A stretch of 37,585 nucleotides of DNA from a virus. Taxonomy: Duplodnaviria > Caudoviricetes. The position numbers and the translations under genes are program-made. This document shows, piece after piece, positions 944 through 17,223 of the stretch. Numbering within the stretch: the stretch's first letter is position 1; the number at the start of each line of letters is the position of its first letter. The notes below the pieces were generated by a model, which worked only from the letters and a program-made list of their open reading frames with translations, did not search any database and was not told the origin of the DNA. The stretch is taken from positions 1 to 37,585 of IMG/VR virus record IMGVR_UViG_3300017560_000305; one strand, given 5' to 3'.

Positions 944-1294
944 ATGAGAACAGTAATCCTTGCGGTATTTGCCGCCCTTTTCCTCGCCTCTTGTTCAAAA
1001 GAAAAATTCCGTCCCGCTGATGACATGATGAACCCGATAAGGGTCTACAGCTCCCGTCCCTCAGTAGAGGGTGATCGTGTACGCATATACATCAACGGTG
1101 AATATGCGGGGAACCTGGTCTATTCTGCGCAGCAGCCAGGATGTGATCAGACACACTTTGTCGGCGTAAAAGTTCGCCGCGGCGATACCGCTGTGATTGA
1201 GTATGTCAACCCTGTTCATCCTTTGGAAAACAAAACACTTAAAGTTAAAACACCTACTCAGCAAGCTGGATGCGTCTTCTTTAATGTAAGATAA
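944..1294 (+). CDS. Lipoprotein of unknown function
   Basis: ATG 944 gives MRTVILAVFAALFLAS-C, a lipobox signal peptide. Confidence 0.75.
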   Translation: MRTVILAVFAALFLASCSKEKFRPADDMMNPIRVYSSRPSVEGDRVRIYINGEYAGNLVYSAQQPGCDQTHFVGVKVRRGDTAVIEYVNPVHPLENKTLKVKTPTQQAGCVFFNVR

Positions 1295-1747: not shown

Positions 1748-2092
1748 ATGGACTACACAAACATCAAAACCTTTGACGATGTATTCGTCGCTACCGGCGT
1801 GACTGAAGAACAGTTCGCGGCTAAGATCAACGGCATGGATCCTGACACTGCAGCCTATGAAAAACTGAAGTTGGTTGCCAAAGCCATCAACGGTGACTGG
1901 ACTCCTGACTTCAGCGACGGGGATCAGGGTAAGTGGGAACCCTGGTTCTACTTCAGAGATAGTGCTTTCGACTTCGCCGTCGGCTGGCACCAGTACTCGT
2001 TCGTCGGCTCCCGCCTTTGCTTCGAAACGGAGGAAAAGGCTGAATACGCGGCTACAACGTTCATTGATGAGTACAACGCTTTTCTGAAATAA
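1748..2092 (+). CDS. DGR target protein 1 (114 aa)
   Basis: Start taken as ATG 1748; paralogous motifs AYEKLK..A.A.N..W.PD..KW.PWF..VGSRLCF; contains VR1. Confidence 0.88.
   Translation: MDYTNIKTFDDVFVATGVTEEQFAAKINGMDPDTAAYEKLKLVAKAINGDWTPDFSDGDQGKWEPWFYFRDSAFDFAVGWHQYSFVGSRLCFETEEKAEYAATTFIDEYNAFLK
1967..2022 (+). repeat. DGR variable repeat VR1
   Basis: Aligns ungapped to TR 8301-8356 with 14 mismatches, all at TR adenines. Confidence 0.93.
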
Positions 2093-2124
2093 GCCTCGCT
2101 ACCTATTTGCAAAAAACACCAATC

Positions 2125-2454
2125 ATGAATATCAACGTAACAATTTCCGCGGCACCTGATCTGCTGCAAACCCTTCAAACTTTCGTGGGCCTGTTGACCG
2201 GCAAAACGAGTACTGATAAAAAGGACAAGCCTGTTAAGCCGGTCGTGACTACCCCTGCTACAGCAACTGAAGCCGCTGAACCGGACAAGGTCGTAACCCT
2301 TACGCAAATTCGCGAGTTGGCGACCGACCTGTCGCAGAGCCACGGCAAAGGACCTGCTGTCAAAAACTTGCTGAAACAGTATGACTGCGATACGCTTACC
2401 AAGCTTCCGCAGGAGCAGTACAACGCCTTTTTCAACGAACTGAAAGGGTTGTAA
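2125..2454 (+). CDS. Hypothetical protein typical of the position upstream of DUF2800
   Basis: ATG 2125 after AAAACACCAATC; low-complexity linker plus helical C-terminal domain (VKNLLKQY..LTKLPQEQY). Confidence 0.75.
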   Translation: MNINVTISAAPDLLQTLQTFVGLLTGKTSTDKKDKPVKPVVTTPATATEAAEPDKVVTLTQIRELATDLSQSHGKGPAVKNLLKQYDCDTLTKLPQEQYNAFFNELKGL

Positions 2455-2455
2455 T

Positions 2456-3625
2456 ATGGCACATGCAATCCTTTCCCCCTCTGGCGCTTCGCGTTGGCTA
2501 GCTTGCACTCCCTCGGCAAGACTGGAAAGTACTTTCCCGGACCAGGCTGGCCTCGCAGCGCGCGAGGGGACGCTTGCCCATACGCTCGGTGAACTACTGA
2601 TCCGGCGAGATAATGACTGGGTGACACCTCCCAAATTCGATAAGCAACTGGCTTTGATCAAAGCAGATAAGCTGTATCAAAATGAGATGATGGCCTACTG
2701 TGAAGATTATGCTGCCTACATCATGGAGAAGTTTGCCGCAGCAAAGATGCACACCGCCGATGCACAATTGCTTCTCGAACAGCGAGTCGATCTTACGGAC
2801 TTTATCAAGGAGGGTTTTGGTACCACAGATGCTAATATCATTGCTGACCATACGCTCGATATCACGGATTTGAAATATGGGAAAGGGGTACCCGTTTCTG
2901 CTGTGGAAAACAAGCAGATGATGATCTATGCCCTTGGTAGCCTGAAGGCTTTCGGTCACCTCTACGATATACAGGTTGTTCGCATGACCATTTACCAACC
3001 TCGGATTCAAAATATTTCCTCTTGGGAAATATCGGTAACGGATCTACTCGCTTGGGCAGAAACAGAACTGCGGCCCAAAGCTGCACTTGCTTTCACTGGC
3101 GAGGGAGATTTCTTACCGGGTAAACATTGCCAGTTCTGCCGCGCACGCGCAGTGTGCAAAACCAACGCAGCCTTTAACCTGGAGATTGAAGAGTACGAAC
3201 GAAGAGAATCCGATCTTCTTTCTGACTCCGATATAGCAGATATACTTGGTCGCGCGGAGGCATTAGAGAAATGGTTGAAAGCTGTAAAAGATCATGCCTT
3301 ACAACAAGCGGTTGCCGGTAAAAGCTATCCAGGATATAAACTTGTCGAAGGACGCAGCGTCCGTAAATACGCTGATGAGGCGGCGGTGGAAAAAAGGCTA
3401 CGGGATAACGGCTTTACTGATGCGCAAATCTTCAAACCGTTGGAGCTGTTGGGTATTACCGCACTGCAGGGTGAACTGGGTAAAAAACAATTTGAACAGT
3501 TGCTCAGTCCTCTTATCATCAAACCCGCTGGTAAACCTGTTTTGGTGCCATCGTCGGATAAACGTCCTGAACTCAATAACCTTGAAGCCGCTGTACGCGA
3601 TTTCGATGATGGCTTCGAAGACTAG
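2456..3625 (+). CDS. DUF2800-family PD-(D/E)XK (Cas4-like) exonuclease
   Basis: HAILSPSGASRWLAC, GFGTTD, DLKYGKG, QMMIYALG and HCQFC..C motifs. Confidence 0.88.
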   Translation: MAHAILSPSGASRWLACTPSARLESTFPDQAGLAAREGTLAHTLGELLIRRDNDWVTPPKFDKQLALIKADKLYQNEMMAYCEDYAAYIMEKFAAAKMHTADAQLLLEQRVDLTDFIKEGFGTTDANIIADHTLDITDLKYGKGVPVSAVENKQMMIYALGSLKAFGHLYDIQVVRMTIYQPRIQNISSWEISVTDLLAWAETELRPKAALAFTGEGDFLPGKHCQFCRARAVCKTNAAFNLEIEEYERRESDLLSDSDIADILGRAEALEKWLKAVKDHALQQAVAGKSYPGYKLVEGRSVRKYADEAAVEKRLRDNGFTDAQIFKPLELLGITALQGELGKKQFEQLLSPLIIKPAGKPVLVPSSDKRPELNNLEAAVRDFDDGFED

Positions 3626-3657
3626 CATAGAAACAGCAAACTTTTAAAACACCAATA

Positions 3658-4245
3658 ATGTCAGAACAAAAATCACCGACCAGTGTGTCGACAGGCGTCG
3701 TACGCCTCAGTTATGCCCATATCTGGGCGCCTTCCAGAATCGATGAGGAAAGTAAGGAGAAATACAGTACTGCGATCCTTATCGACAAGGCGGATAAGTC
3801 AACCGTTGACAAAATCAACGCGGCAATCGAGCACCTCGAAAAAGAAGCCAAAGAAAAGAACAAAGGAAAGCTGCCCAAAAACTTCAAGCGCCCGCTACGT
3901 GACGGGGATGAAGAAAAGCCTGAAGACGAGAACTACGCCGGAAAGTACTTCCTGAACGCGTCCAGCAGCCGCAAACCCGGTATTGTGAAACGTGTCAACG
4001 GCAAGTTGGAAACGATCACCGAAGAAGGTGAAGTATACTCAGGTGCCTACGTCCGCGTCGGTCTGAACTTTTACCTCTTCGATGTGAAAGGTAATGTCGG
4101 CATTGCCGCGGGCCTCAACAACATTCTGAAAGTAAAAGACGGCGAGCCGTTGGCCGGTGGTACTTCCGCCTCCCAGGATTTTGACGACGATTTCGATTAC
4201 AGTGAAATCGACGCCGATGCAGAAAACGACAGCTTTCTCAACTAA
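3658..4245 (+). CDS. DUF2815-family ssDNA-binding protein (T7 gp2.5-like)
   Basis: RLSYAHIW, PLRDGD, VYSG, GIAAGLNNI..DGEPLAG motifs; acidic C-terminal tail. Confidence 0.88.
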   Translation: MSEQKSPTSVSTGVVRLSYAHIWAPSRIDEESKEKYSTAILIDKADKSTVDKINAAIEHLEKEAKEKNKGKLPKNFKRPLRDGDEEKPEDENYAGKYFLNASSSRKPGIVKRVNGKLETITEEGEVYSGAYVRVGLNFYLFDVKGNVGIAAGLNNILKVKDGEPLAGGTSASQDFDDDFDYSEIDADAENDSFLN

Positions 4246-4251
4246 CCCCGC

Positions 4252-4278
4252 AAGAGCCTGTTTCGGCAGGCTCTTTTT
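4252..4278 (+). terminator. Intrinsic terminator after the SSB gene
   Basis: AAGAGCCTG-TTTCGG-CAGGCTCTT then T run. Confidence 0.8.
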
Positions 4279-4290
4279 AAATTTTTTAAT

Positions 4291-4749
4291 ATGAATAATT
4301 TAACCATATCGAAACAACACGTGCTCAGTGCCTACCGGTCCGAGAGTCTTGAAGGTAAAAAAGTTCTTGAAGCATTATTTGGCAACACTGTGTTTCAGCC
4401 AATCACTGATCGCGTAAAAACCTTTGCAGACGCCTGCGCCGTTGTTGGAACAACCGAACAGGCTGTCCTTGCCTTATCTCAAACAACCGATGGCCAAGCT
4501 TATGAAAAGTTGAAAGTAGTCGCCCAAGCACTCAACGAAGGCTGGCAGCCTGACTGGAAGAACGGCAACAAGTACAAATGGTATCCAGTATTCGACATGA
4601 GTGGTGATCGCCTCGTCTTCTACGGCGCCTACTTCTGGTACCTGCGCTCGGCCGTCGGCTCCCGCCTTTGCTTCGAAACGGAGGAAAAGGCAGCGTATGC
4701 CGGCAAACAGTTTTTGGATCTTTTCGAAACTCTTTTCGTTATCCAATGA
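4291..4749 (+). CDS. DGR target protein 2 (152 aa)
   Basis: RVKTFADAC, AYEKLK, NEGWQPDW, KWYP, VGSRLCF; contains VR2; ATGA-coupled to the DNA polymerase. Confidence 0.9.
   Translation: MNNLTISKQHVLSAYRSESLEGKKVLEALFGNTVFQPITDRVKTFADACAVVGTTEQAVLALSQTTDGQAYEKLKVVAQALNEGWQPDWKNGNKYKWYPVFDMSGDRLVFYGAYFWYLRSAVGSRLCFETEEKAAYAGKQFLDLFETLFVIQ
4612..4673 (+). repeat. DGR variable repeat VR2
   Basis: Ungapped match to TR 8295-8356 with 15 mismatches, all at TR adenines. Confidence 0.95.
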
Positions 4750-6689
4750 AAGAACTTTCAATCGATATTGAAACTTTCAGCAGCGTTGACCTCAGAAAGT
4801 CGGGCGTGTACCGGTACGCAGAGGCGCCAGACTTTCAGATTCTCCTGTTTGCGTACAGCTACGGTGGCAAGGTTGAAATTGTAGACTTCGCGAACGATGA
4901 AGTTCTTCCTGATCAGGTATTGGCTGATCTCGTTAATCCGGATGTACTCAAAACTGCCTTTAATGCCGCTTTCGAACGTACTTGTATTGCTGCTTATCTG
5001 GGGCTTCAAATGCCTGCATCGCAGTGGCGCTGTACAATGGTAAAAGCGATGCAGCTTGGTTTGCCTGGCAGTCTTGATTCTGTGGCGAAAGCTTTGAAAC
5101 TGTCTGCAGAGAAAGACAATGCCGGTAAGGCGTTAATCAAATATTTTTCCGTCCCTTGTAAACCGACAAAGACAAACGGCTTAAGGATCCGAAATCTACC
5201 TGCGCATGATCTGGTCAAATGGGAAGCGTTCAAAAACTACTGTATCCAGGACGTCGTGGTAGAAAAGCAGATCAGAGAATCACTCTCATGGTTTGAACCC
5301 GTACCGACTGAGCATAAAGTCTGGAACCTGGATCAAAAGATCAATGACACCGGGATCATGCTAAACGCTGAACTCGTTAACAATGCTATTGCCTTTGATC
5401 TGGCCTTTGCAGAAAAACTGAGTACCGAAGCGGCTGTCTTGACCGGTCTTTCAAATCCAAACAGTGTTGCACAGCTTAAACAGTGGATTTTGGATACCTC
5501 CGGCGAGGAGGTTGACAAACTGAATAAAGACACCCTACCAGAGCTGATCGATAAAACGGACGACGAGGTGTTACGGCGTGTGTTAGAACTCCGTCAGCAG
5601 ATGGCCAAAACATCCGTCAAAAAGTACCTGGCTATGCGCAACGCGATCTGCCGCAATGGTAGAGTGCATGGCGTTACGCAGTATTACGGTGCTGGGCGGA
5701 CAGGACGGTGGGCCGGTCGTTTAGTCCAGGTGCAGAACTTGCCAAAAAACGACTTGTCTGATCTTGACCTTGCCCGCCGTATTACCCTGTCCGGTGATAT
5801 TGATACCCTGGAACTCTGTTTCGGTAACGTGCCGGACACCCTTTCTCAACTCATCCGTACCGCTTTTGTTGCGCCTGCAGGAAACCGCCTCATCCCTTCT
5901 GATTTCTCTGCTATTGAGGCGCGCGTAATTGCGTGGCTGGCTGGCGAAAACTGGCGACTGGAAGTCTTCAAAACACACGGTAAAATATATGAAGCTTCAG
6001 CCGCACAGATGTTCGGTGTACCGATCGAATCCATCAAAAAGGGTTCTGATCTCCGACAGAAGGGGAAAGTGTCAGAACTGGCTCTTGGTTACCAGGGTGG
6101 CCCAAATGCCTTGGTTAAAATGGGAGCGCTCAAAATGGGATTACAAGAGGAAGAACTGCCTAAGCTGGTCAAGATGTGGCGCAATGCTAATAAGAAGATC
6201 GTCGCGTTTTGGGATAGCGTCAACAGGGCTGCTATTACCGCAGTTGAAACCGGCCGCACAGTCTCTCTGCAGCACCAAGTCGGCTTTCAAGTTTACAAGG
6301 ACATCCTGTTTATTCACTTGCCGAGTGGTCGGAAGCTGGCTTATCAACAGCCTCGGTTGCTTGATGGGAAATACGGTCCTATCGTTACTTACTCCGGAAC
6401 TGATCAACAGAAAAAGACCTGGGGCCGGCAGGAAACCTATGGTGGTAAACTGGTCGAAAATATCGTACAGGCGGTATCGCGCGACCTGCTGGCAGACGCG
6501 ATGCTTCGCCTGGATGCGGCGGGTTATAAAATATGCATGCACGTGCATGACGAGGTTGTCCTGGAAGTTCCCACGGACAAGGGATCACTTGACGAGATCG
6601 ACGCAATTATGGGAGCGTCTGTTCCCTGGGCCTCAGGGCTGCCTTTAAAAGCAGACAGTTACGAAACACTTTACTACAAAAAAGATTAA
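4746..6689 (+). CDS. Phage family A DNA polymerase with 3'-5' exonuclease domain
   Basis: DIET (ExoI), FNAAFE, YCIQD, motif A DFSAIEAR, motif B RQKGKVSELALGY, motif C HVHDE; start taken as ATG 4746. Confidence 0.95.
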   Translation: MKELSIDIETFSSVDLRKSGVYRYAEAPDFQILLFAYSYGGKVEIVDFANDEVLPDQVLADLVNPDVLKTAFNAAFERTCIAAYLGLQMPASQWRCTMVKAMQLGLPGSLDSVAKALKLSAEKDNAGKALIKYFSVPCKPTKTNGLRIRNLPAHDLVKWEAFKNYCIQDVVVEKQIRESLSWFEPVPTEHKVWNLDQKINDTGIMLNAELVNNAIAFDLAFAEKLSTEAAVLTGLSNPNSVAQLKQWILDTSGEEVDKLNKDTLPELIDKTDDEVLRRVLELRQQMAKTSVKKYLAMRNAICRNGRVHGVTQYYGAGRTGRWAGRLVQVQNLPKNDLSDLDLARRITLSGDIDTLELCFGNVPDTLSQLIRTAFVAPAGNRLIPSDFSAIEARVIAWLAGENWRLEVFKTHGKIYEASAAQMFGVPIESIKKGSDLRQKGKVSELALGYQGGPNALVKMGALKMGLQEEELPKLVKMWRNANKKIVAFWDSVNRAAITAVETGRTVSLQHQVGFQVYKDILFIHLPSGRKLAYQQPRLLDGKYGPIVTYSGTDQQKKTWGRQETYGGKLVENIVQAVSRDLLADAMLRLDAAGYKICMHVHDEVVLEVPTDKGSLDEIDAIMGASVPWASGLPLKADSYETLYYKKD

Positions 6690-6691
6690 AC

Positions 6692-7356
6692 GTGAAAACG
6701 GATACGATGATATCAATGTGCGATCTGACTGGTAAGATGGCTGAACCTTGGGCGGAAGCTGGATATACATGTATATGTGTCGATATCCAGCATTCAATCA
6801 GGGCGACAAAACGATGTGCGCACCCTGTCAAACATTTTCCATCGGGCGGATCTATTCATTTCGTTTGGGGAGACGCCAGGAGTTGGAAGCCATCAATGTT
6901 TTGTAAAGATTTCTTCAATCGGTATATCATCCGATTCGTGGCTTGTTTTCCTACTTGTACCAATCTGGCCGGCAGCGGCTCGCAGGATTGGCAACTCAAA
7001 GGAATTGCAATGCTTACCGACGGTCTGATGCTATTCAACGCTTGCGAGCAGATATCAGATTGGTCCGGCGCGCCATATTTAATTGAAAACCCTGTTGGTG
7101 TTGTCCCTGCACATCACCGGAAGCCAGACTATTATTTCCAGCCGTGGCAATTCGGCGACCTATACCAAAAGAAAACATGCCTTTGGTCAGGTAACGGATT
7201 CGTCATGCCAGAGGCAGAATACATCTTCAAACCGGAAGGTGTTACGCAAAAGATATGGCTTACCCCCCCGGTCCGGATCGTCAGAATGAAAGGTCAAAAA
7301 CGCCGACAGGATTTGCTCGGGCAGTTTTCAACGCTAATAAATTCTTGAACCAATAA
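6692..7356 (+). CDS. C5-cytosine methyltransferase-like protein, apparently frameshifted near the C-terminus
   Basis: N-terminal SAM-binding-like strand (ISMCDLTG..VDI), FPTCT, IENPVG, KKTCLW. The reported frame stops at 7348; the family-like tail RSKTPTGFARAVFNAN is in another frame after a C7 tract and stops at 7356. Confidence 0.6.
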
Positions 7357-7366
7357 AACACCAATC

Positions 7367-7837
7367 ATGCAAACACTACAGACTCCCAAACAAACAGTTA
7401 TTGACCTTTTCAATAACTCCAACACAGTAGAACGTGCCGTTCTTATCAAGCTGTTCGGCGACTCCTTTCATCGGCCAATTACAGAACGCATCCAGACCAT
7501 TGAGGATGCCTACGCCGAATTAGGCCGCAAACCTGAAGATTTCCGGCCATACAGTCAACCGCCAAATCAGCGCCAGGAAGCCATGAATGCCATGGCAGAT
7601 ATCTGGACCGTTGTTGAAGCCGCCAACGAAGGCTGGCAGCCTGACTGGAAAAACGACGATGAATACAAATGGTACCCATTCTTCGATATGAGTGGTGATC
7701 GCCTCGTCTTCTACGGCGCCAACTACTGGGGCCAGGGCTCGGACGTCGGCTCCCGCCTTTGCTTTCGGACTCGTGATTTGGCCGAGCATTTTGGTAAAAA
7801 ATTCATCGAGGTATATGAGAAATTCATGTGCTCCTAA
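7367..7837 (+). CDS. DGR target protein 3 (156 aa)
   Basis: ERIQTIEDA, NEGWQPDW, KWYPFF, VGSRLCF; contains VR3. Confidence 0.9.
   Translation: MQTLQTPKQTVIDLFNNSNTVERAVLIKLFGDSFHRPITERIQTIEDAYAELGRKPEDFRPYSQPPNQRQEAMNAMADIWTVVEAANEGWQPDWKNDDEYKWYPFFDMSGDRLVFYGANYWGQGSDVGSRLCFRTRDLAEHFGKKFIEVYEKFMCS
7703..7765 (+). repeat. DGR variable repeat VR3
   Basis: Ungapped match to TR 8295-8357 with 12 mismatches, all at TR adenines. Confidence 0.95.
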
Positions 7838-7863
7838 CCTTCAAAACTTTCAAAACACCAATC

Positions 7864-8244
7864 ATGACAAAAGTCATCTCCTTCCTGTCAGCTTGTAAAA
7901 AGCTCAAAAGAGACCCTAAGAAACTCCCCGTCGTAAAGGGTTTGCCAAAGATCCATGCTGAGGCCATTATCGCCCAGTATAAATTATGGACCATCGCTGA
8001 CGCAATCCGCGATGGCTGGAAACCGGATTATAGCAATACCGATCAATGGAAGTGGTACGCTTACTTCTACTTTGAGTCTGCAAAAACAAAACAAGGCCGT
8101 CCGACCCTCGTCTTCGGCTGCGCCGCCTACTGGAACCGGGCCTCGTACGTCGGCTCCCGCCTTTGCTTCGAAACGAGGGCACAGGCTGAATACTTTGGTA
8201 AGAAATTCATAAAGCTGCACCAGCAGGTTCACCGAATGGATTAA
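7864..8244 (+). CDS. DGR target protein 4 (126 aa, basic)
   Basis: ATG 7864 after AAAACACCAATC; AQYKL, DGWKPDY, KWYAYF, VGSRLCF; contains VR4. Confidence 0.9.
   Translation: MTKVISFLSACKKLKRDPKKLPVVKGLPKIHAEAIIAQYKLWTIADAIRDGWKPDYSNTDQWKWYAYFYFESAKTKQGRPTLVFGCAAYWNRASYVGSRLCFETRAQAEYFGKKFIKLHQQVHRMD
8107..8168 (+). repeat. DGR variable repeat VR4
   Basis: Ungapped match to TR 8295-8356 with 14 mismatches, all at TR adenines. Confidence 0.95.
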
Positions 8245-8461
8245 CGTATTCAGGTCGTACGTGTCAAGGTTGCTGCCGCTCTTCGGCTCTTTGCCTCGTC
8301 TTCAACAACGCCAACAACTGGAACCAGAACTCGAACGTCAGCTCCCACCTATGCTTTAAGAACTCAGACGACGTAGACCTTACCTCTTGGTAAAAAATAA
8401 CAATAATTAGTAGGGGCGGTGGTACCAATCCGGGAAGCCTACCCGAACAAAGCAAAGTTTT
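8245..8461 (+). ncRNA. Putative DGR template RNA (5' flank, TR, spacer)
   Basis: Non-coding interval between target 4 and RT; contains the TR, flanking complementary segments and small hairpins. RNA ends unknown. Confidence 0.6.
8295..8356 (+). repeat. DGR template repeat (TR)
   Basis: CTC GTC TTC AAC AAC GCC AAC AAC TGG AAC CAG AAC TCG AAC GTC AGC TCC CAC CTA TGC TT: seven AAC triplets, 18 adenines, non-coding, about 105 nt upstream of the RT. Confidence 0.95.
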
Positions 8462-9430
8462 GTGAAACGAATATCTAACCTTTTTAACCAGATATGCAGC
8501 GTCGAAAATTTACGCTTGGCCGATCAGAAGGCCCGCCGTGGTAAACTGGATCAGTACGGTGTAAAACGACATGACCAGCAACGGGAGGAAAATCTGCTGG
8601 CTTTACATGAGCAACTCGTCAACCGGAATTATCGGACTTCAGAATACTTGGTACGCACAATTGTTGAACGGAAGACCCGGGTTGTCTACAAACTCCCTTA
8701 TTACCCGGACCGGATAACGCATCACGCGATTATGAACATCCTTGAACCGATTTTTGTCGCGCACTTTACTGCCGATACCTATTCCAGCATCAAAGGCAGA
8801 GGGTTACACCTGGCAGCGGATAACGTTAAAATCGCGTTACGGGATAAGGTGAATACTGCCTACTGCTTGAAAATGGATATCACGCAATTTTATCCTTCGA
8901 TCAATCACGATATTCTGAAAGCTCAACTGCGTCGAAAGTTCAAAGATCTCGATTTGTTATGGCTGCTGGATGAGATTATCGATAGTGCGCCCGGCGTACC
9001 CATCGGGAATTATCTGAGCCAGTACTTTGCCAATTTCTACCTGACGGGTTTTGATCGCTGGGTCAAGCAAGAAAAGGGTGTACGGTATTACTTTCGATAT
9101 GCAGATGATCTGGTCATCTTCGGTGCCGATAAACAGACGCTGCATGCACTGGCTGCTGATATCCGGCATTACTTGTCAGCCAACCTGAAACTTTCAGTAA
9201 AGGACAACTACCAGGTATTTCCAGTAGCTGCGCGCGGCGTTGACTTCCTTGGCTACAAATTCTATCACACGCACACGCGTCTTCGCAAATCCATCAAACG
9301 ACAGTTCGCACGAAGGCTGGCAAAAGGAGCCAGCGGGCAGACCGTTGCCGCTTACTGGGGCTGGGTGAAGCATTGCAATAGTCGCAACCTCATGAAAAAA
9401 TTAACCGGTAAAAAATCATTACAAGCATGA
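8462..9430 (+). CDS. DGR reverse transcriptase (322 aa)
   Basis: DRITHHA, YSSIKGRG, LKMDITQFYPSI, GVPIGNYLSQ (the SQ variant typical of DGR RTs), RYADD, DFLGY; no maturase or endonuclease extension; GTG start. Confidence 0.95.
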   Translation: MKRISNLFNQICSVENLRLADQKARRGKLDQYGVKRHDQQREENLLALHEQLVNRNYRTSEYLVRTIVERKTRVVYKLPYYPDRITHHAIMNILEPIFVAHFTADTYSSIKGRGLHLAADNVKIALRDKVNTAYCLKMDITQFYPSINHDILKAQLRRKFKDLDLLWLLDEIIDSAPGVPIGNYLSQYFANFYLTGFDRWVKQEKGVRYYFRYADDLVIFGADKQTLHALAADIRHYLSANLKLSVKDNYQVFPVAARGVDFLGYKFYHTHTRLRKSIKRQFARRLAKGASGQTVAAYWGWVKHCNSRNLMKKLTGKKSLQA

Positions 9431-14526: not shown

Positions 14527-14831
14527 CTACACCACTACTTATTGTACTGGCGGCTTTGGCCAATGCGACCATGCTGATGCATGTCGTTTTTGAACCGTTG
14601 AGTTACCGACTTTGGATACGTCAACATAGCAAAAAAGGCGGCAAGATACCGCCAGCTAATGAACGGCATTTCTTACCCCGTAAACCTTTTCGGTGTATTC
14701 CGTGTCTGACGGCATGGCTTGCTTTTCTGTTTGCTATGTTCGCAGATCAAGGTGTTTTTTCAGTGGTTTATATCGGAGCCGGCTACATGATGGGTTGTAT
14801 TTATTCAGCCATTCAAATGCGATACCTGTGA
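14523..14831 (+). CDS. Membrane protein with CxxC motif (DUF1360-like)
   Basis: Three hydrophobic segments and CIPCLTAW. Confidence 0.6.
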   Translation: MTTPLLIVLAALANATMLMHVVFEPLSYRLWIRQHSKKGGKIPPANERHFLPRKPFRCIPCLTAWLAFLFAMFADQGVFSVVYIGAGYMMGCIYSAIQMRYL

Positions 14832-15784
14832 AAGTATTAGGACTTGTTTTTAAAGATCACGGCCCGACGTTTCACCGGGTTTTAATGCCTTTGTTGAAGA
14901 TGAGAGAAGTCGACGCATACATCACCAATGCACCGAGGGATGAGGACTTTTCGAGCATCGATGTACTGTATTACAACCGCCATGTTAACCAGGATCTGAT
15001 CGAAAAGGCCCGGGCCGTTGGAGCAAAAATCGTTATGGACCTGGATGATCACTGGGAGTTGGACCCGCACCATGTGGCGTTTCAATCTTCAAAAAAAGTT
15101 CGTGACCTCATTATCCAGCAGGTTCAGCAGGCAGACGCCGTCACCTGTACACACGACAGGCTGGCACAGGAAATATACCGGTACAACAAAAACGTGCATG
15201 TTGCGGCCAACGCTATACCGAATGATCCGGAGTACTTCCCTGTCAAGAACATTCCCGCCGAACTCACCCGTTTATTCTGGCAGGGGTCCATTACCCATGA
15301 AAAAGACATTAACCTGCTGCGGAAGACAGTGCGGACATTAGATTCTAGCCGGTTCATGATGGTCATGGCGGGCTACAATTCGGAGGATGTGGAATGGTTC
15401 CGAATGGCCAATGCCTATACCGACTACCAGAAGATGCCATACTCACTACTGGAAGGGCTTCCGCCTTCAGGCTATTACCGTTACTACTCACTGGCAGACG
15501 TGTGCCTGGTGCCATTACTGTCCACGTGGTTCAATGGGTTTAAAAGCAACCTGAAGGTATTGGAAGCGGCTCACGCTGGCCTACCAGCCATCGTTTCCGA
15601 TGTGAACCCATACCGCGGTTTACCAGTCCTTTACGTTCGAAAGGAAAGCGACTGGCTGAAGTGGATAAATGACAAGGACGCCCAACGTGAATGTGCACGC
15701 GATCTGCAGGCTTTTTGCCAAGAACATTACGACTACGACATGATTAATCAACAACGAAAAGAGTTTTTATTTCATGAAACCTGA
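14828..15784 (+). CDS. Glycosyltransferase (GT-B fold, GT4-like)
   Basis: FHRVLMP, MDLDDHW, FWQGS, KSNLKVLEAAHAGLPAIVSDV; GTG start overlaps the upstream TGA. Confidence 0.82.
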   Translation: MKVLGLVFKDHGPTFHRVLMPLLKMREVDAYITNAPRDEDFSSIDVLYYNRHVNQDLIEKARAVGAKIVMDLDDHWELDPHHVAFQSSKKVRDLIIQQVQQADAVTCTHDRLAQEIYRYNKNVHVAANAIPNDPEYFPVKNIPAELTRLFWQGSITHEKDINLLRKTVRTLDSSRFMMVMAGYNSEDVEWFRMANAYTDYQKMPYSLLEGLPPSGYYRYYSLADVCLVPLLSTWFNGFKSNLKVLEAAHAGLPAIVSDVNPYRGLPVLYVRKESDWLKWINDKDAQRECARDLQAFCQEHYDYDMINQQRKEFLFHET

Positions 15785-16028
15785 AAACAAGCAATTCCTG
15801 GACGAACTCCGGCCCTTGCATGATCTGTATGTAAAGGCTCAATACATCAAACACTTTGACGGCGCAACCCGGCAAAGGCTGCTTGATGTCATACGGGAAG
15901 AGTTTCAGCCTGGTTACCTGGCGGACCTGTGGTGTTCAAGCTGCGTTGCGGATATGCTGGTGTTTGCTTTCACGCAGTATGATAAGCAGCCAAAAGAGAT
16001 ATTAAAGCCTAAAAAGGAACGAAAATGA
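15774..16028 (+). CDS. Small hypothetical protein with CxxC
   Basis: WCSSCV; overlaps both neighbours. Confidence 0.65.
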   Translation: MKPENKQFLDELRPLHDLYVKAQYIKHFDGATRQRLLDVIREEFQPGYLADLWCSSCVADMLVFAFTQYDKQPKEILKPKKERK

Positions 16029-16510
16029 AGTACATCCACCCTACAGCGGTCATCGGCCCCAACGTAACGATTGGGGATGCGTATATCGGCCCATACTGCG
16101 TTATCGGTTATCCTGCCGAACACCGTGGCACCTTTCCCGAGGTGGGCAAGGTGGAGATTTGCGACGGAGCAATCCTGACAGGTCATGTAACCGTTGATGC
16201 AGGTATCGGCATGAATGGTGTCACGTTCATTGGATCTTCAGCATTCCTTATGAAGCATTCCCATGTCGGGCACGATGCTATCCTTTACCAGGGGGTAACT
16301 GTCGCGTGCGGGGCAAAAATCGGTGGACATTGCGTTATCGGCGTTGAAGCAAATATCGGTTTAAACGCAGTGATACATCAACGAGTTATCATACCCGCCG
16401 GTTGTATGATCGGTGCCGGCGCTGTGGTGATCAAAAAAAGCCAGATGCAACCTAATTACAAGTATGCCGGCAACCCTGTGCGGGAACTCGGCCCAAATTT
16501 TAAGATATGA
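16025..16510 (+). CDS. Hexapeptide-repeat (left-handed beta-helix) acyl/acetyltransferase, LpxA/NeuD-like
   Basis: IHPTAVIGPNVTIG, HVGHD, IGAGAVV, YAGNP. Confidence 0.85.
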   Translation: MKYIHPTAVIGPNVTIGDAYIGPYCVIGYPAEHRGTFPEVGKVEICDGAILTGHVTVDAGIGMNGVTFIGSSAFLMKHSHVGHDAILYQGVTVACGAKIGGHCVIGVEANIGLNAVIHQRVIIPAGCMIGAGAVVIKKSQMQPNYKYAGNPVRELGPNFKI

Positions 16511-17223
16511 AAGTAGGAGTGATACTCTTAACCTGTGGCCGCGCAGACCTCACGCAACGAGTAGTCGACCGGTGTTTGTTCAATTCCGGGCATAACGCCC
16601 CAGTGTATTGGGTGGATAATGGAAGCGGCTACGATGACTTTATGCGGATTGCAGCCCTGTACCCCTTCGATGGTTCGTACCGGTTTGAGGAGAATAAAGG
16701 CATTTCCGCCGCGATCAATGCGGGTATCAGGATGGCCAAGACTGAAGGATGCGATGCGGTCGTTACACTCGCAAACGACATTATGATGCCCGACGGTTGG
16801 CTGGCTGCAATGGTCAGCGCTGCCGGGGCCATCGAGAGGACCGGCATGGTCGGCATACACTGCGTGGAGACGCTGCCGCCGATTGAGGAACTCGACGGGG
16901 TTACCGTTCACCCGACTTTTGCCCCGTTCGGAAACACCTTAATCACAATGGAGGCTATCAGGGCAGTGGGCATGTTCAACGAGGATTTCGACCCGTACGG
17001 GATGCAGGACACTGATTTCGGATATCGTACAACGATGGCCGGGTTTAGGAATTACTACCTACCACACCTGCAGTCTGAGCACATCGGCCACGACGTAGGG
17101 CAGGATAGTGAATACCGGCGGATGAAGGACGAGGGGCTGTCTAAGGCCGGACAGATATGGGCAGACGCTCAATCCAGATATGATGAAACTGGCAACTACA
17201 CAATTTTTTACCCTGAATGGTGA
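16507..17223 (+). CDS. Glycosyltransferase family 2 (GT-A fold)
   Basis: WVDNGS, ENKGISAAINAG, LANDI, VGMFNEDF..YGMQDTDF. Confidence 0.85.
   Translation: MKVGVILLTCGRADLTQRVVDRCLFNSGHNAPVYWVDNGSGYDDFMRIAALYPFDGSYRFEENKGISAAINAGIRMAKTEGCDAVVTLANDIMMPDGWLAAMVSAAGAIERTGMVGIHCVETLPPIEELDGVTVHPTFAPFGNTLITMEAIRAVGMFNEDFDPYGMQDTDFGYRTTMAGFRNYYLPHLQSEHIGHDVGQDSEYRRMKDEGLSKAGQIWADAQSRYDETGNYTIFYPEW

Follow-up and report, generated by a model that had tools for sequence, protein, structure and literature searches.

Known systems and the present locus

In DGRs of the Bordetella phage BPP-1 type (mtd-avd-TR-brt), the RNA of the template repeat (TR) is reverse-transcribed with errors at adenines, and the resulting cDNA replaces the VR. 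Recent work (PMC12875486) connects the transfer of DGR cDNA to its target with single-stranded DNA of the replication fork.

The small target family considered here has been catalogued by Roux et al. 2021 (PMC8144416) as PC_00007 ('Phage_other', DGR clade 1, RT cluster REF_DGR_[t122]). In the catalogue entries concerned, PC_00007 is the primary target of 208 RT OTUs of this cluster, is viral with FCB hosts, as here, and is classed as non-structural/unknown, 1.6% being predicted structural (PMC8144416); the corresponding part of the target file holds at least 94 occurrences of LNEGW, a long-short pair included. The main-text passages make no mention of PC_00007, and fold, cassette, dimer and accessory gene are undescribed in them; unlike PC_00007 as described there, the present copy serves four targets at dispersed positions.

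Wu et al. 2018 (PMC5758913) assigned DGR #120 of Galbibacter, with the order TG-TG-TR-RT, to Lineage 3, architecture A1 and class CLec3/f4. Its target was filed as a C-lectin from the VR alignment, phage context not being given there, and was reported to align poorly to other CLec3 targets (PMC5758913); it carries the label PC_00007 in the Roux data entries concerned. The TR of #120 is about 70 nt long and, as here, a GC hairpin is lacking after the VR. Compared by eye, both #120 and #121 share with the present DGR the long-short-TR-RT order and the lack of avd, and the targets agree in motif order and length with the sequences in the Roux and Wu supplements.

Counter-defence has been proposed for the distal, non-structural target of Quimbyvirus/LoVEphage (Benler 2021, PMC8008677; Dahlman 2025, PMC12629997). 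In those phages the distal target is single, is called a C-type lectin and is secondary to the tail target of the DGR, the TR being 113-118 nt long, whereas the DGR here serves the target family only, in four copies, with a 64-nt TR. LoVEphage QVQ57199.1, which bears the distal VR, matches the target profile (E 4.7e-29); its neighbourhood fits Benler's ORF 80/84, with which it is probably identical. The original prediction, a DGR hypermutating a family of early intracellular proteins, stands in so far as the DGR is real and its targets, neither tail proteins nor secreted, belong to the early/replication region. Its suggestion of an undescribed system is not supported, since the targets are PC_00007 of Roux 2021 and those of DGR #120/#121 of Wu 2018 and counter-defence had already been proposed elsewhere. 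The target class itself being already catalogued, what is added here is the prevalence of the cassette, the fold search, the T3-T4 dimer prediction and the mutual exclusion of PAG1 and an SSB module.

Template and variable repeats

The features of the locus are collected in Table 1. The window (the whole 37,585-nt stretch of prophage DNA analysed) was scanned on both strands, ungapped, with TR 8295-8356 as the query. The matches at 7703, 8107 and 4612 each have no non-adenine mismatch, the match at 1961 has five, every one before 1967, and the next best TR-like place in the window has 20. The expected 14, 15, 12 and 14 mismatches of one TR to four VRs were recovered on recounting, all 55 of 55 falling on TR adenines with the anticipated spectrum of 29 G, 21 T and 5 C; the end of VR3 had to be corrected, from 7765 to 7764 for the 62-nt repeat. 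For 14 mismatches all to fall on the 18 adenines of 62 nt by chance, the probability is 1e-10. Twelve of the 55 mismatches represent three positions at which the four VRs agree with one another (TR 8340 G, 8347 G, 8351 T). Because these sites are fixed across 92 loci (152/152 G, 142/143 G and 112/112 T), they are differences between IMH and IMH*, and therefore 43 mismatches are true variable sites. A fifth target was found neither in the window nor in L284, which extends 2.6 kb further upstream, and the distance from VR1 to the TR, re-measured, agrees with the 6.3 kb given earlier.

Table 1. Features of the DGR locus (positions in the window)
Feature	Position	Strand	Remarks
Target T1, short form	1748..2092	+	114 aa, pI 4.3, PHROG 11581
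VR1 + IMH	1967..2022	+	14 mismatches vs TR 8301-8356, all at A
Enc34/Gp2.5-like ssDNA-binding/annealing protein	3658..4245	+	PF10991, PHROG 112
Target T2, long form	4291..4749	+	152 aa, extra N-terminal helical hairpin
VR2 + IMH	4610..4673	+	15 mismatches, all at A
Target T3, long form	7367..7837	+	156 aa
VR3 + IMH	7701..7764	+	12 mismatches, all at A
Target T4, short form	7864..8244	+	126 aa, pI 9.8
VR4 + IMH	8106..8168	+	14 mismatches, all at A; other allele in independent run
Template repeat TR	8293..8356	+	7 AAC codons + 1 CAG, 15 mutable A
IMH*	about 8337-8356	+	within TR
TR-RT spacer	8357..8461	+	blocks conserved across 92 loci
DGR reverse transcriptase	8462..9430	+	frame open over 322 aa; GNYLSQ at 182, YADD at 213

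Each target could take about 6.8e8 amino-acid variants (15^7 x 4, calculated by hand), a stop codon being impossible, and at the AAC/AAT codons the VRs are enriched for Y (18%), D (14%) and G (10%). The locus has TR/VR, adenine-specific change, IMH/IMH* and RT in common with BPP-1. Unlike BPP-1, it has no avd, no tail target and no GC hairpin after the VR (the 50 nt 3' of each VR have a folding energy of only -1.1 to -4.9 kcal/mol), but about 25 further codons after the VR and four targets; the VRs are confined to four early genes, none being a tail receptor-binding gene in a tail module.

Variation at template adenines

Adenine-specific variation between strains, the absence of which would have spoken for an inactive relic, is present in VR4 and among relatives. 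In run X7, from another study and a related strain, VR4 8116-8145 differs by eye at 8 of 13 TR adenines and at none of 17 other sites, which indicates that the element has been active. Among 52 near-identical gene pairs, differences occupy 144 of 1081 TR-adenine sites, against 4 of 2894 other VR sites and 48 of 17499 sites outside. All 23 variable VR sites in five LoVEphage-type genomes are TR adenines (23/23), and in two other PAG1-less records with identical RT (L007 and L008) the target differs at 11 of 19 TR-adenine sites and is otherwise unchanged. Five runs contain a near-identical prophage; their contigs, from which rare variants are dropped, yielded no VR allele beyond cross-matches between paralogs. 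A candidate VR2 allele in X7 (4643-4652, differences all at TR adenines) was rejected, as the contig joins VR1-like sequence upstream to VR2 downstream via a shared 39-mer.

Reverse transcriptase, spacer and accessory gene

The RT matches RVT_1 and PHROG 1423 (E 8e-118), and its catalytic motif is intact. The conserved hairpin of the spacer is retained: where the majority have G-C, both sides have changed to give A-U. The reported ATGA coupling to the primase was reproduced, the RT stop and primase start overlapping at 9427-9430; such coupling is not typical of the class, as PAG1 comes after the RT in most relatives. No Avd family was found among the 44 ORFs. T4 was considered as a substitute for Avd and rejected, being itself a VR-bearing paralog and LoVEphage's DGR having no such neighbour.

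PAG1, which by eye corresponds to the gene after the RT in relatives and was called tenuous by Wu (3 DGRs), adjoins the RT in 133 of 147 loci. It is found in 133 of the 135 loci without an exo-SSB-PolA module against none of the 12 with this module, and is absent here. The PAG1 model (pLDDT 88.2) has a predicted OB-fold. Its top structural match is the OB domain of RuvBL2 (Z 6.6, rmsd 3.2, 69 aligned), SSBs are matched at Z 5.8 (rmsd 2.6-2.7, 66-67 aligned), and most of the best 50 rows are OB folds, with every Z below 8. Among 60 PAG1 proteins, no Pfam family (E 0.1) recurs in more than 2. The Gp2.5-like SSB is a candidate stand-in for the missing PAG1.

Target proteins and their predicted fold

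The targets had been described as small soluble paralogs, and this holds: they are 114, 152, 156 and 126 aa long, share 35-44% identity and have no hydrophobic segment, neither TM nor signal. T3 and T4 represent the conserved long-short pair ahead of the TR (T3-T4-TR-RT). The class ranks among the large ones in the DGR target catalogues, 5,339 clusters at 50% identity matching the target profile. Two-domain tandem fusions of the target domain exist, and the longer homologues (n=19) are mostly tandem repeats of it, PF03382 occurring in 2. PADLOC and NCBIfam return no family for the targets, and no Pfam family is common to more than 3 of 117 targets at E 0.1.

The published expectation for such VR domains is a C-lectin variant. 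The T2 model (pLDDT 88.6) is mainly helical with one beta-hairpin, and a helical scaffold with the VR on this single hairpin is predicted for the targets. Foldseek found no match to the T2 model in PDB at E<=0.001. A wide PDB comparison has no CLec or Ig chain among its 50 best rows, which is no proof of a new fold; its best match is an unrelated protein (Z 4.6, rmsd 5.0, 105 aligned), and a second structure comparison reached at best Z 3.3. BFVD and ESM Atlas return only uncharacterised viral proteins, and a PDB sequence search with a target gave nothing under E 0.019. The conserved Cys in TFEDAC and SRLCF may resemble the CLec alpha1/beta5 pattern. No literature on the fold or dimer of the target family, or on the fold of PAG1, was found in a search of sources other than subscription journals and bioRxiv supplements.

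The T3-T4 complex, the one pairing folded, scored 0.77 against 0.02 for the best control; near relatives of a genuine partner pass this test as well. Of 157 solved pairs 116 reach the score mark, and of 215 mismatched pairs 2 do. Contacts agree between runs to at least 97%, and partner pLDDT is at least 83. This pass is unlikely to reflect memorised structures, because solved relatives were not found. The predicted interface includes variable residues 116, 119, 123, 124 and 126 of T3 and 85, 88, 92, 93 and 95 of T4, and a T3-T4 heterodimer with both VRs at the seam is predicted. If VR residues are buried there, their role may be to adjust pairing and not to contact a ligand. Long and short forms occur together in 76 of 92 loci; since the other 16 have a single form only and LoVEphage has one member, the heterodimer is not obligatory.

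Distribution and genomic context

A survey of related phages, proposed earlier as a check, shows that the long-short-TR-RT cassette is common in the early regions of Bacteroidota phages. Phages of Mu-like, lambda-like and PolA type carry the targets across Bacteroidota, and cultured carriers include BI-TP1 (gp84), PV4-TP1 (gp58) and LoVEphage (QVQ57199.1). Four or more targets are rare (3/132), and in each of 12 related phage records (12/12) genes of the target family are the sole matches of the TR. The nearest annotated neighbour is a gene of replication, recombination or transposition in 69 of 91 loci, a methyltransferase in 12, a head/neck gene in 5 and a regulator or integrase in 3, with none in 2; the 5 of 91 loci with a head/neck gene nearest count against a non-virion reading. 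In 85 of 91 loci, replication genes are no farther than 5 kb away and have the same orientation. Tail-fibre genes never adjoin targets among the 137 neighbour clusters scanned. One public record names a member 'tail protein' (HHpred), yet the gene sits between NinB and the replisome organiser.

The neighbours here are, as first described, exonuclease, Gp2.5-like SSB, PolA, methyltransferase and primase/helicase, the methyltransferase gene being frameshifted near its 3' end. The promoter signal was not above chance, with no match to a Bacteroidota promoter pattern. Plasmid matches were not found, and no RNA datasets with this sequence are listed.

Possible functions

The reading given about an even chance is that an intact, Avd-less DGR rewrote four early paralogs, whose long/short pairs would bind and neutralise, inside the infected cell, a changing host protein, likely of defence. 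A single template has rewritten one and the same set of eight codons in four small paralogs of the early operon. As in BPP-1, TR RNA would be reverse-transcribed with errors at A and cDNA would replace the VR, with the phage's own Gp2.5-like SSB probably handling the cDNA in place of the accessory PAG1 with its predicted OB-fold. Long and short chains, as modelled, would pair into two-chain binders with the variable segments side by side, so that two long and two short chains might give up to four pairings. The targets are probably expressed alongside lytic early genes, and the ligand would be a host protein, most likely of anti-phage defence. Early-region position suits any intracellular role, counter-defence being one. 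The neighbours of the LoVEphage member are methyltransferases, a TIGR02757-family gene and RtcB, and a similar neighbourhood has been described for its Quimbyvirus counterpart (Benler 2021, PMC8008677).

A broader proposal, held tentatively and well short of even, joins an intracellular antibody-like repertoire of non-lectin long/short chains against host defence with PAG1-dependent, Avd-less DGR homing. In its first part, a single retroelement of Bacteroidota phages would rewrite the chains, whose combinatorial pairing, here two by two, would create composite binding sites; in its second, PAG1 would be ssDNA-binding and would have been lost repeatedly wherever a Gp2.5-like SSB/annealer could replace it.

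Replication genes nearby on the same strand in most loci (85/91, within 5 kb), carriage across Bacteroidota by phages of Mu-like, lambda-like and PolA type and the lack of an effector domain in the targets would also suit host-takeover adaptors, that is, intracellular variable binders that dock on a housekeeping protein (replisome, RNA polymerase or protease) and track host strains, with no defence involved. This is considered rather unlikely, as housekeeping surfaces probably evolve slowly, a poor fit with constant hypermutation, and the LoVEphage member has methyltransferase and RtcB genes for neighbours.

Still less probable is a role in inter-phage conflict, in which the targets recognise the proteins of competing phages for exclusion or sensing, as has been proposed for DGR-diversified sensors of multicellular bacteria. 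Variable binders without an export signal fit such a role, and phage proteins would evolve fast enough to reward hypermutation; however, there is neither an effector domain nor a conserved effector neighbour, and the targets are likely silent in the lysogen, because their genes follow the repressor divergence on the strand of the lytic genes.

That the targets are minor virion, decoration or injected proteins encoded out of place and diversifying receptor binding is improbable. Tail proteins make up most phage DGR targets, CLec3 tail targets share the VR end motif, one LoVEphage TR serves both kinds of target, and a structural role of PC_00007 was left open in the relevant passages of Roux 2021. 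Against this, tail-fibre genes are never adjacent among the 137 neighbour clusters, the homology to the C-terminus of the LoVEphage tail collar does not go beyond 19 columns where the VR ends (probability 5%), and 1.6% of PC_00007 is predicted structural in the entries concerned (PMC8144416).

Finally, that this copy is a recent relic, its DGR silenced by loss of PAG1 and its four VRs frozen, is very improbable: PAG1 is absent from the record, no VR variants were found in the contigs of the five runs with a near-identical prophage and the adjacent methyltransferase is frameshifted, but the RT is open with its motifs intact, the four VRs have zero non-A drift, the spacer hairpin is retained, a related strain has another VR4 allele, and the PAG1-less L007 and L008, with identical RT, have otherwise the same target apart from 11 of 19 TR-adenine sites.

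If the counter-defence reading is true, phages would possess a counter-measure of a new kind in a small, soluble scaffold of two chains whose variable seam is programmable; the same scaffold would be a compact platform for binder evolution. The exclusion between PAG1 and the SSB module offers a direct genetic handle on the route of DGR cDNA to its target, and since a member is present in cultured LoVEphage-type phages, its localisation is testable now.

Anatomy of the DGR and its target family

The window is a single provirus record with an estimated completeness of 85%, with a divergent repressor-like gene at one end and a serine integrase at the other. With both strands counted together, the template repeat (TR) matches exactly four sites, the variable repeats VR1 to VR4 inside the paralogous targets T1 to T4; a fifth match is absent, the next-best site having 20 non-adenine mismatches. 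The counts of 14, 15, 12 and 14 mismatches in the original prediction are exact on recount, and its claim of adenine-only change stands, as all 55 fall on TR adenines (29 G, 21 T, 5 C). Because three positions are identical across all four VRs and fixed over 92 loci (152/152, 142/143 and 112/112), they mark IMH versus IMH*; with these differences set aside, 43 true variable-site changes are left. The 15 mutable TR adenines are supplied by seven AAC codons plus a single CAG. The RT frame is open and possesses the GNYLSQ and YADD motifs, the TR-RT spacer retains its conserved blocks and hairpin, and no avd was found among the 44 ORFs of the window.

Positions in the window of the features discussed
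Feature	Position	Strand	Description
Lipoprotein gene	944-1294		small, predicted; hydrophobic leader, then Cys
T1	1748..2092	+	short form
T2	4291..4749	+	long form, extra N-terminal helical hairpin
T3	7367..7837	+	long form
T4	7864..8244	+	short form
TR	8293-8356
RT	8462..9430	+
SSB	3658..4245		Gp2.5-like/Enc34, PF10991
Terminator-like hairpin	4252-4275		strong; between SSB and T2
Methyltransferase	6692-7356		PHROG 757; 7-C run at 7263-7269
14-nt leader	2114, 3647, 7356, 7853		ends in start codon of PHROG 408-like gene, SSB, T3 and T4, respectively
Shared DNA past VR1/VR2	2002-2040, 4653-4691		39 nt, near-identical
Shared DNA upstream of VR2/VR3	4600-4620, 7691-7711		near-identical
Glycosyltransferase region	14693-17223		two glycosyltransferases and a hexapeptide-repeat transferase

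All four targets are assigned to PHROG 11581, and the target profile recovers 5,339 clusters (50% identity level). The survey covered 157 sources, namely the window plus 156 loci, largely of Bacteroidota, drawn from IMG/VR and GTDB. RT is present in 122 of these, and in 116 of the 122 at least two targets form TR/VR pairs that differ at adenines only. An enlarged set of 219 loci gave 156 RT clusters at 90%; in the 132 with sufficient upstream DNA, one target is found in 3 clusters, two in 103, three in 23, four in 2 and five in 1. The commonest order is long target, short target, TR, RT, with exact long-short order in 56/92 loci and both forms in 76/92, counts that are biased because the search query was a long form. 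Among loci of at least 12 kb, targets are dispersed in 6/10 with the exo-SSB-PolA gene module versus 6/100 without it. The layout of the window is an uncommon, four-target dispersed form of the class.

This class is already catalogued yet functionally blank. Two DGRs of the type (#120 and #121) were placed by Wu 2018 in CLec3/f4, Avd-less Lineage 3 (PMC5758913), and Roux 2021 lists the target class as PC_00007, non-structural/unknown, with the expectation that unknown VR domains are CLec variants (PMC8144416). Distal VRs close to counter-defence genes are described by Benler 2021 (PMC8008677) and Dahlman 2025 (PMC12629997), and DGR homing has been tied to replication direction (PMC12875486). 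The distal VR of LoVEphage sits in the same target family as T1 to T4; passages of PMC11054128 and PMC12694917 contribute nothing further about this family.

Variation between strains

A near-identical prophage occurs in six soil runs of 2018, three of which may be where the record itself came from, with a VR covered in five; the contigs of these five, which drop rare variants, contain no VR alleles other than paralog cross-matches. Run X7, from a different study and a related strain (depth 2.7), differs from the window within VR4 (8116-8145) at 8/13 TR-adenine sites and 0/17 other sites, against 13/172 in the piece of contig upstream, all counted by eye. In 52 near-identical gene pairs of relatives, 144/1081 TR-adenine sites differ, versus 4/2894 other VR sites and 48/17499 sites outside VR. 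All 23 varying VR sites in five LoVEphage-type genomes are TR adenines. The element of the window is a genuine, strain-variable DGR.

Genomic context

The surroundings speak against a tail system. From 91 dereplicated loci, 1,688 adjacent ORFs were clustered, and none of the 137 clusters scanned (those in at least two loci) belongs to a tail-fibre family. The nearest annotated neighbour is a replication, recombination or transposition gene in 69/91 loci, the remainder being methyltransferase (12), head/neck (5), regulator/integrase (3) and none (2). TR matches in 12 whole records, 10 of them at least 90% complete, all lie within target-family genes. No hydrophobic segment was found in T1 to T4.

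Near-identical DNA extends beyond the VRs in targets only 44% identical as proteins, which suggests gene conversion among the paralogs; assemblies break at these shared stretches. The 14-nt leader has four exact matches, and five with up to 2 mismatches versus 0.69 expected; it may mark translation starts in common, or serve as a handle for recombination. Given the hairpin ahead of T2, expression of T2 and the genes downstream may depend on read-through or on a separate promoter. The methyltransferase is frameshifted near its 7-C run: the ORF covers profile positions 12-182, and positions 192-220 resume in a different frame (E 1e-7). The letters there are identical in contigs from three runs, and the gene is either a slippage-type switch or broken. 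The early-region lipoprotein has no family match. The glycosyltransferase region stands directly ahead of the terminase genes.

PAG1 and the SSB module

A gene of about 100 amino acids (PHROG 19665), matched by eye to PAG1, the RT-adjacent accessory gene of Wu 2018, lies 3' of RT in most relatives. In its model (pLDDT 88.2) OB folds rank first, with SSBs at a middling Z of 5.8. After 9 truncated clusters were dropped from the 156, PAG1 was found in 133/135 clusters without the module versus 0/12 with it; the Fisher value for this contrast takes no account of kinship. One of the two exceptions without the module, L110, carries a shortened copy. Whole records give the same picture: PAG1 occurs in 1/10 with the module, counting the window, which lacks it, and this sole copy belongs to a second DGR on a different contig. 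PF10991 is present in 3/32 virus records, the three with the module, and in 0/29 others; among these 29, 21 were shown to be PAG1-positive.

These distributions are consistent with the phage SSB taking over the PAG1 role in module phages, although two RT relatives with other targets have neither PAG1 nor the module. PAG1 may instead have been lost along with phage lineage, from some other cause. On a tree that was built quickly and is poorly resolved, RTs lacking PAG1 are spread about (10 changes over 11 rows, at least three forced), and their clustering is not above that of shuffles, one row being a truncated locus.

Genome G009 contains two DGRs of the target family on separate contigs (L132, L161), one with PAG1 and the other with the module. 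A single in-frame RT-PAG1 fusion is found at a contig end (L204, 10001-11170).

Structure and pairing of the targets

The T2 model (pLDDT 88.6, pTM 0.81) is mostly helical with a single beta-hairpin, and the VR spans the second hairpin strand and the next loop. Structure searches against solved folds gave no good match; the targets may or may not belong to CLec. Likeness to the LoVEphage tail-collar target covers just 19 columns, at the VR end. That a single LoVEphage TR feeds both this target and the family member suggests that the VR end either became grafted on a small scaffold or was reduced into one. Structural (BFVD) or weak sequence relatives of the scaffold occur in crAss-like phages (NC_055890.1, NC_055889.1).

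The predicted T3-T4 complex scores 0.77, the best control 0.02; the mark for this score is passed by 116/157 solved pairs and 2/215 mismatched pairs. Contacts were reproduced between runs to 97% or more, and partner pLDDT is no lower than 83. Equivalent variable residues from both chains lie in the predicted interface. Among the possible pairs, homodimers included, the prediction covers T3 with T4 alone. Tandem two-domain versions of the target protein exist.

The likeliest reading, at about even odds, is that T1 to T4 form variable intracellular binders of two chains that serve counter-defence. The testable additions made here are the predicted long-short dimer and the mutual exclusion of PAG1 and SSB.
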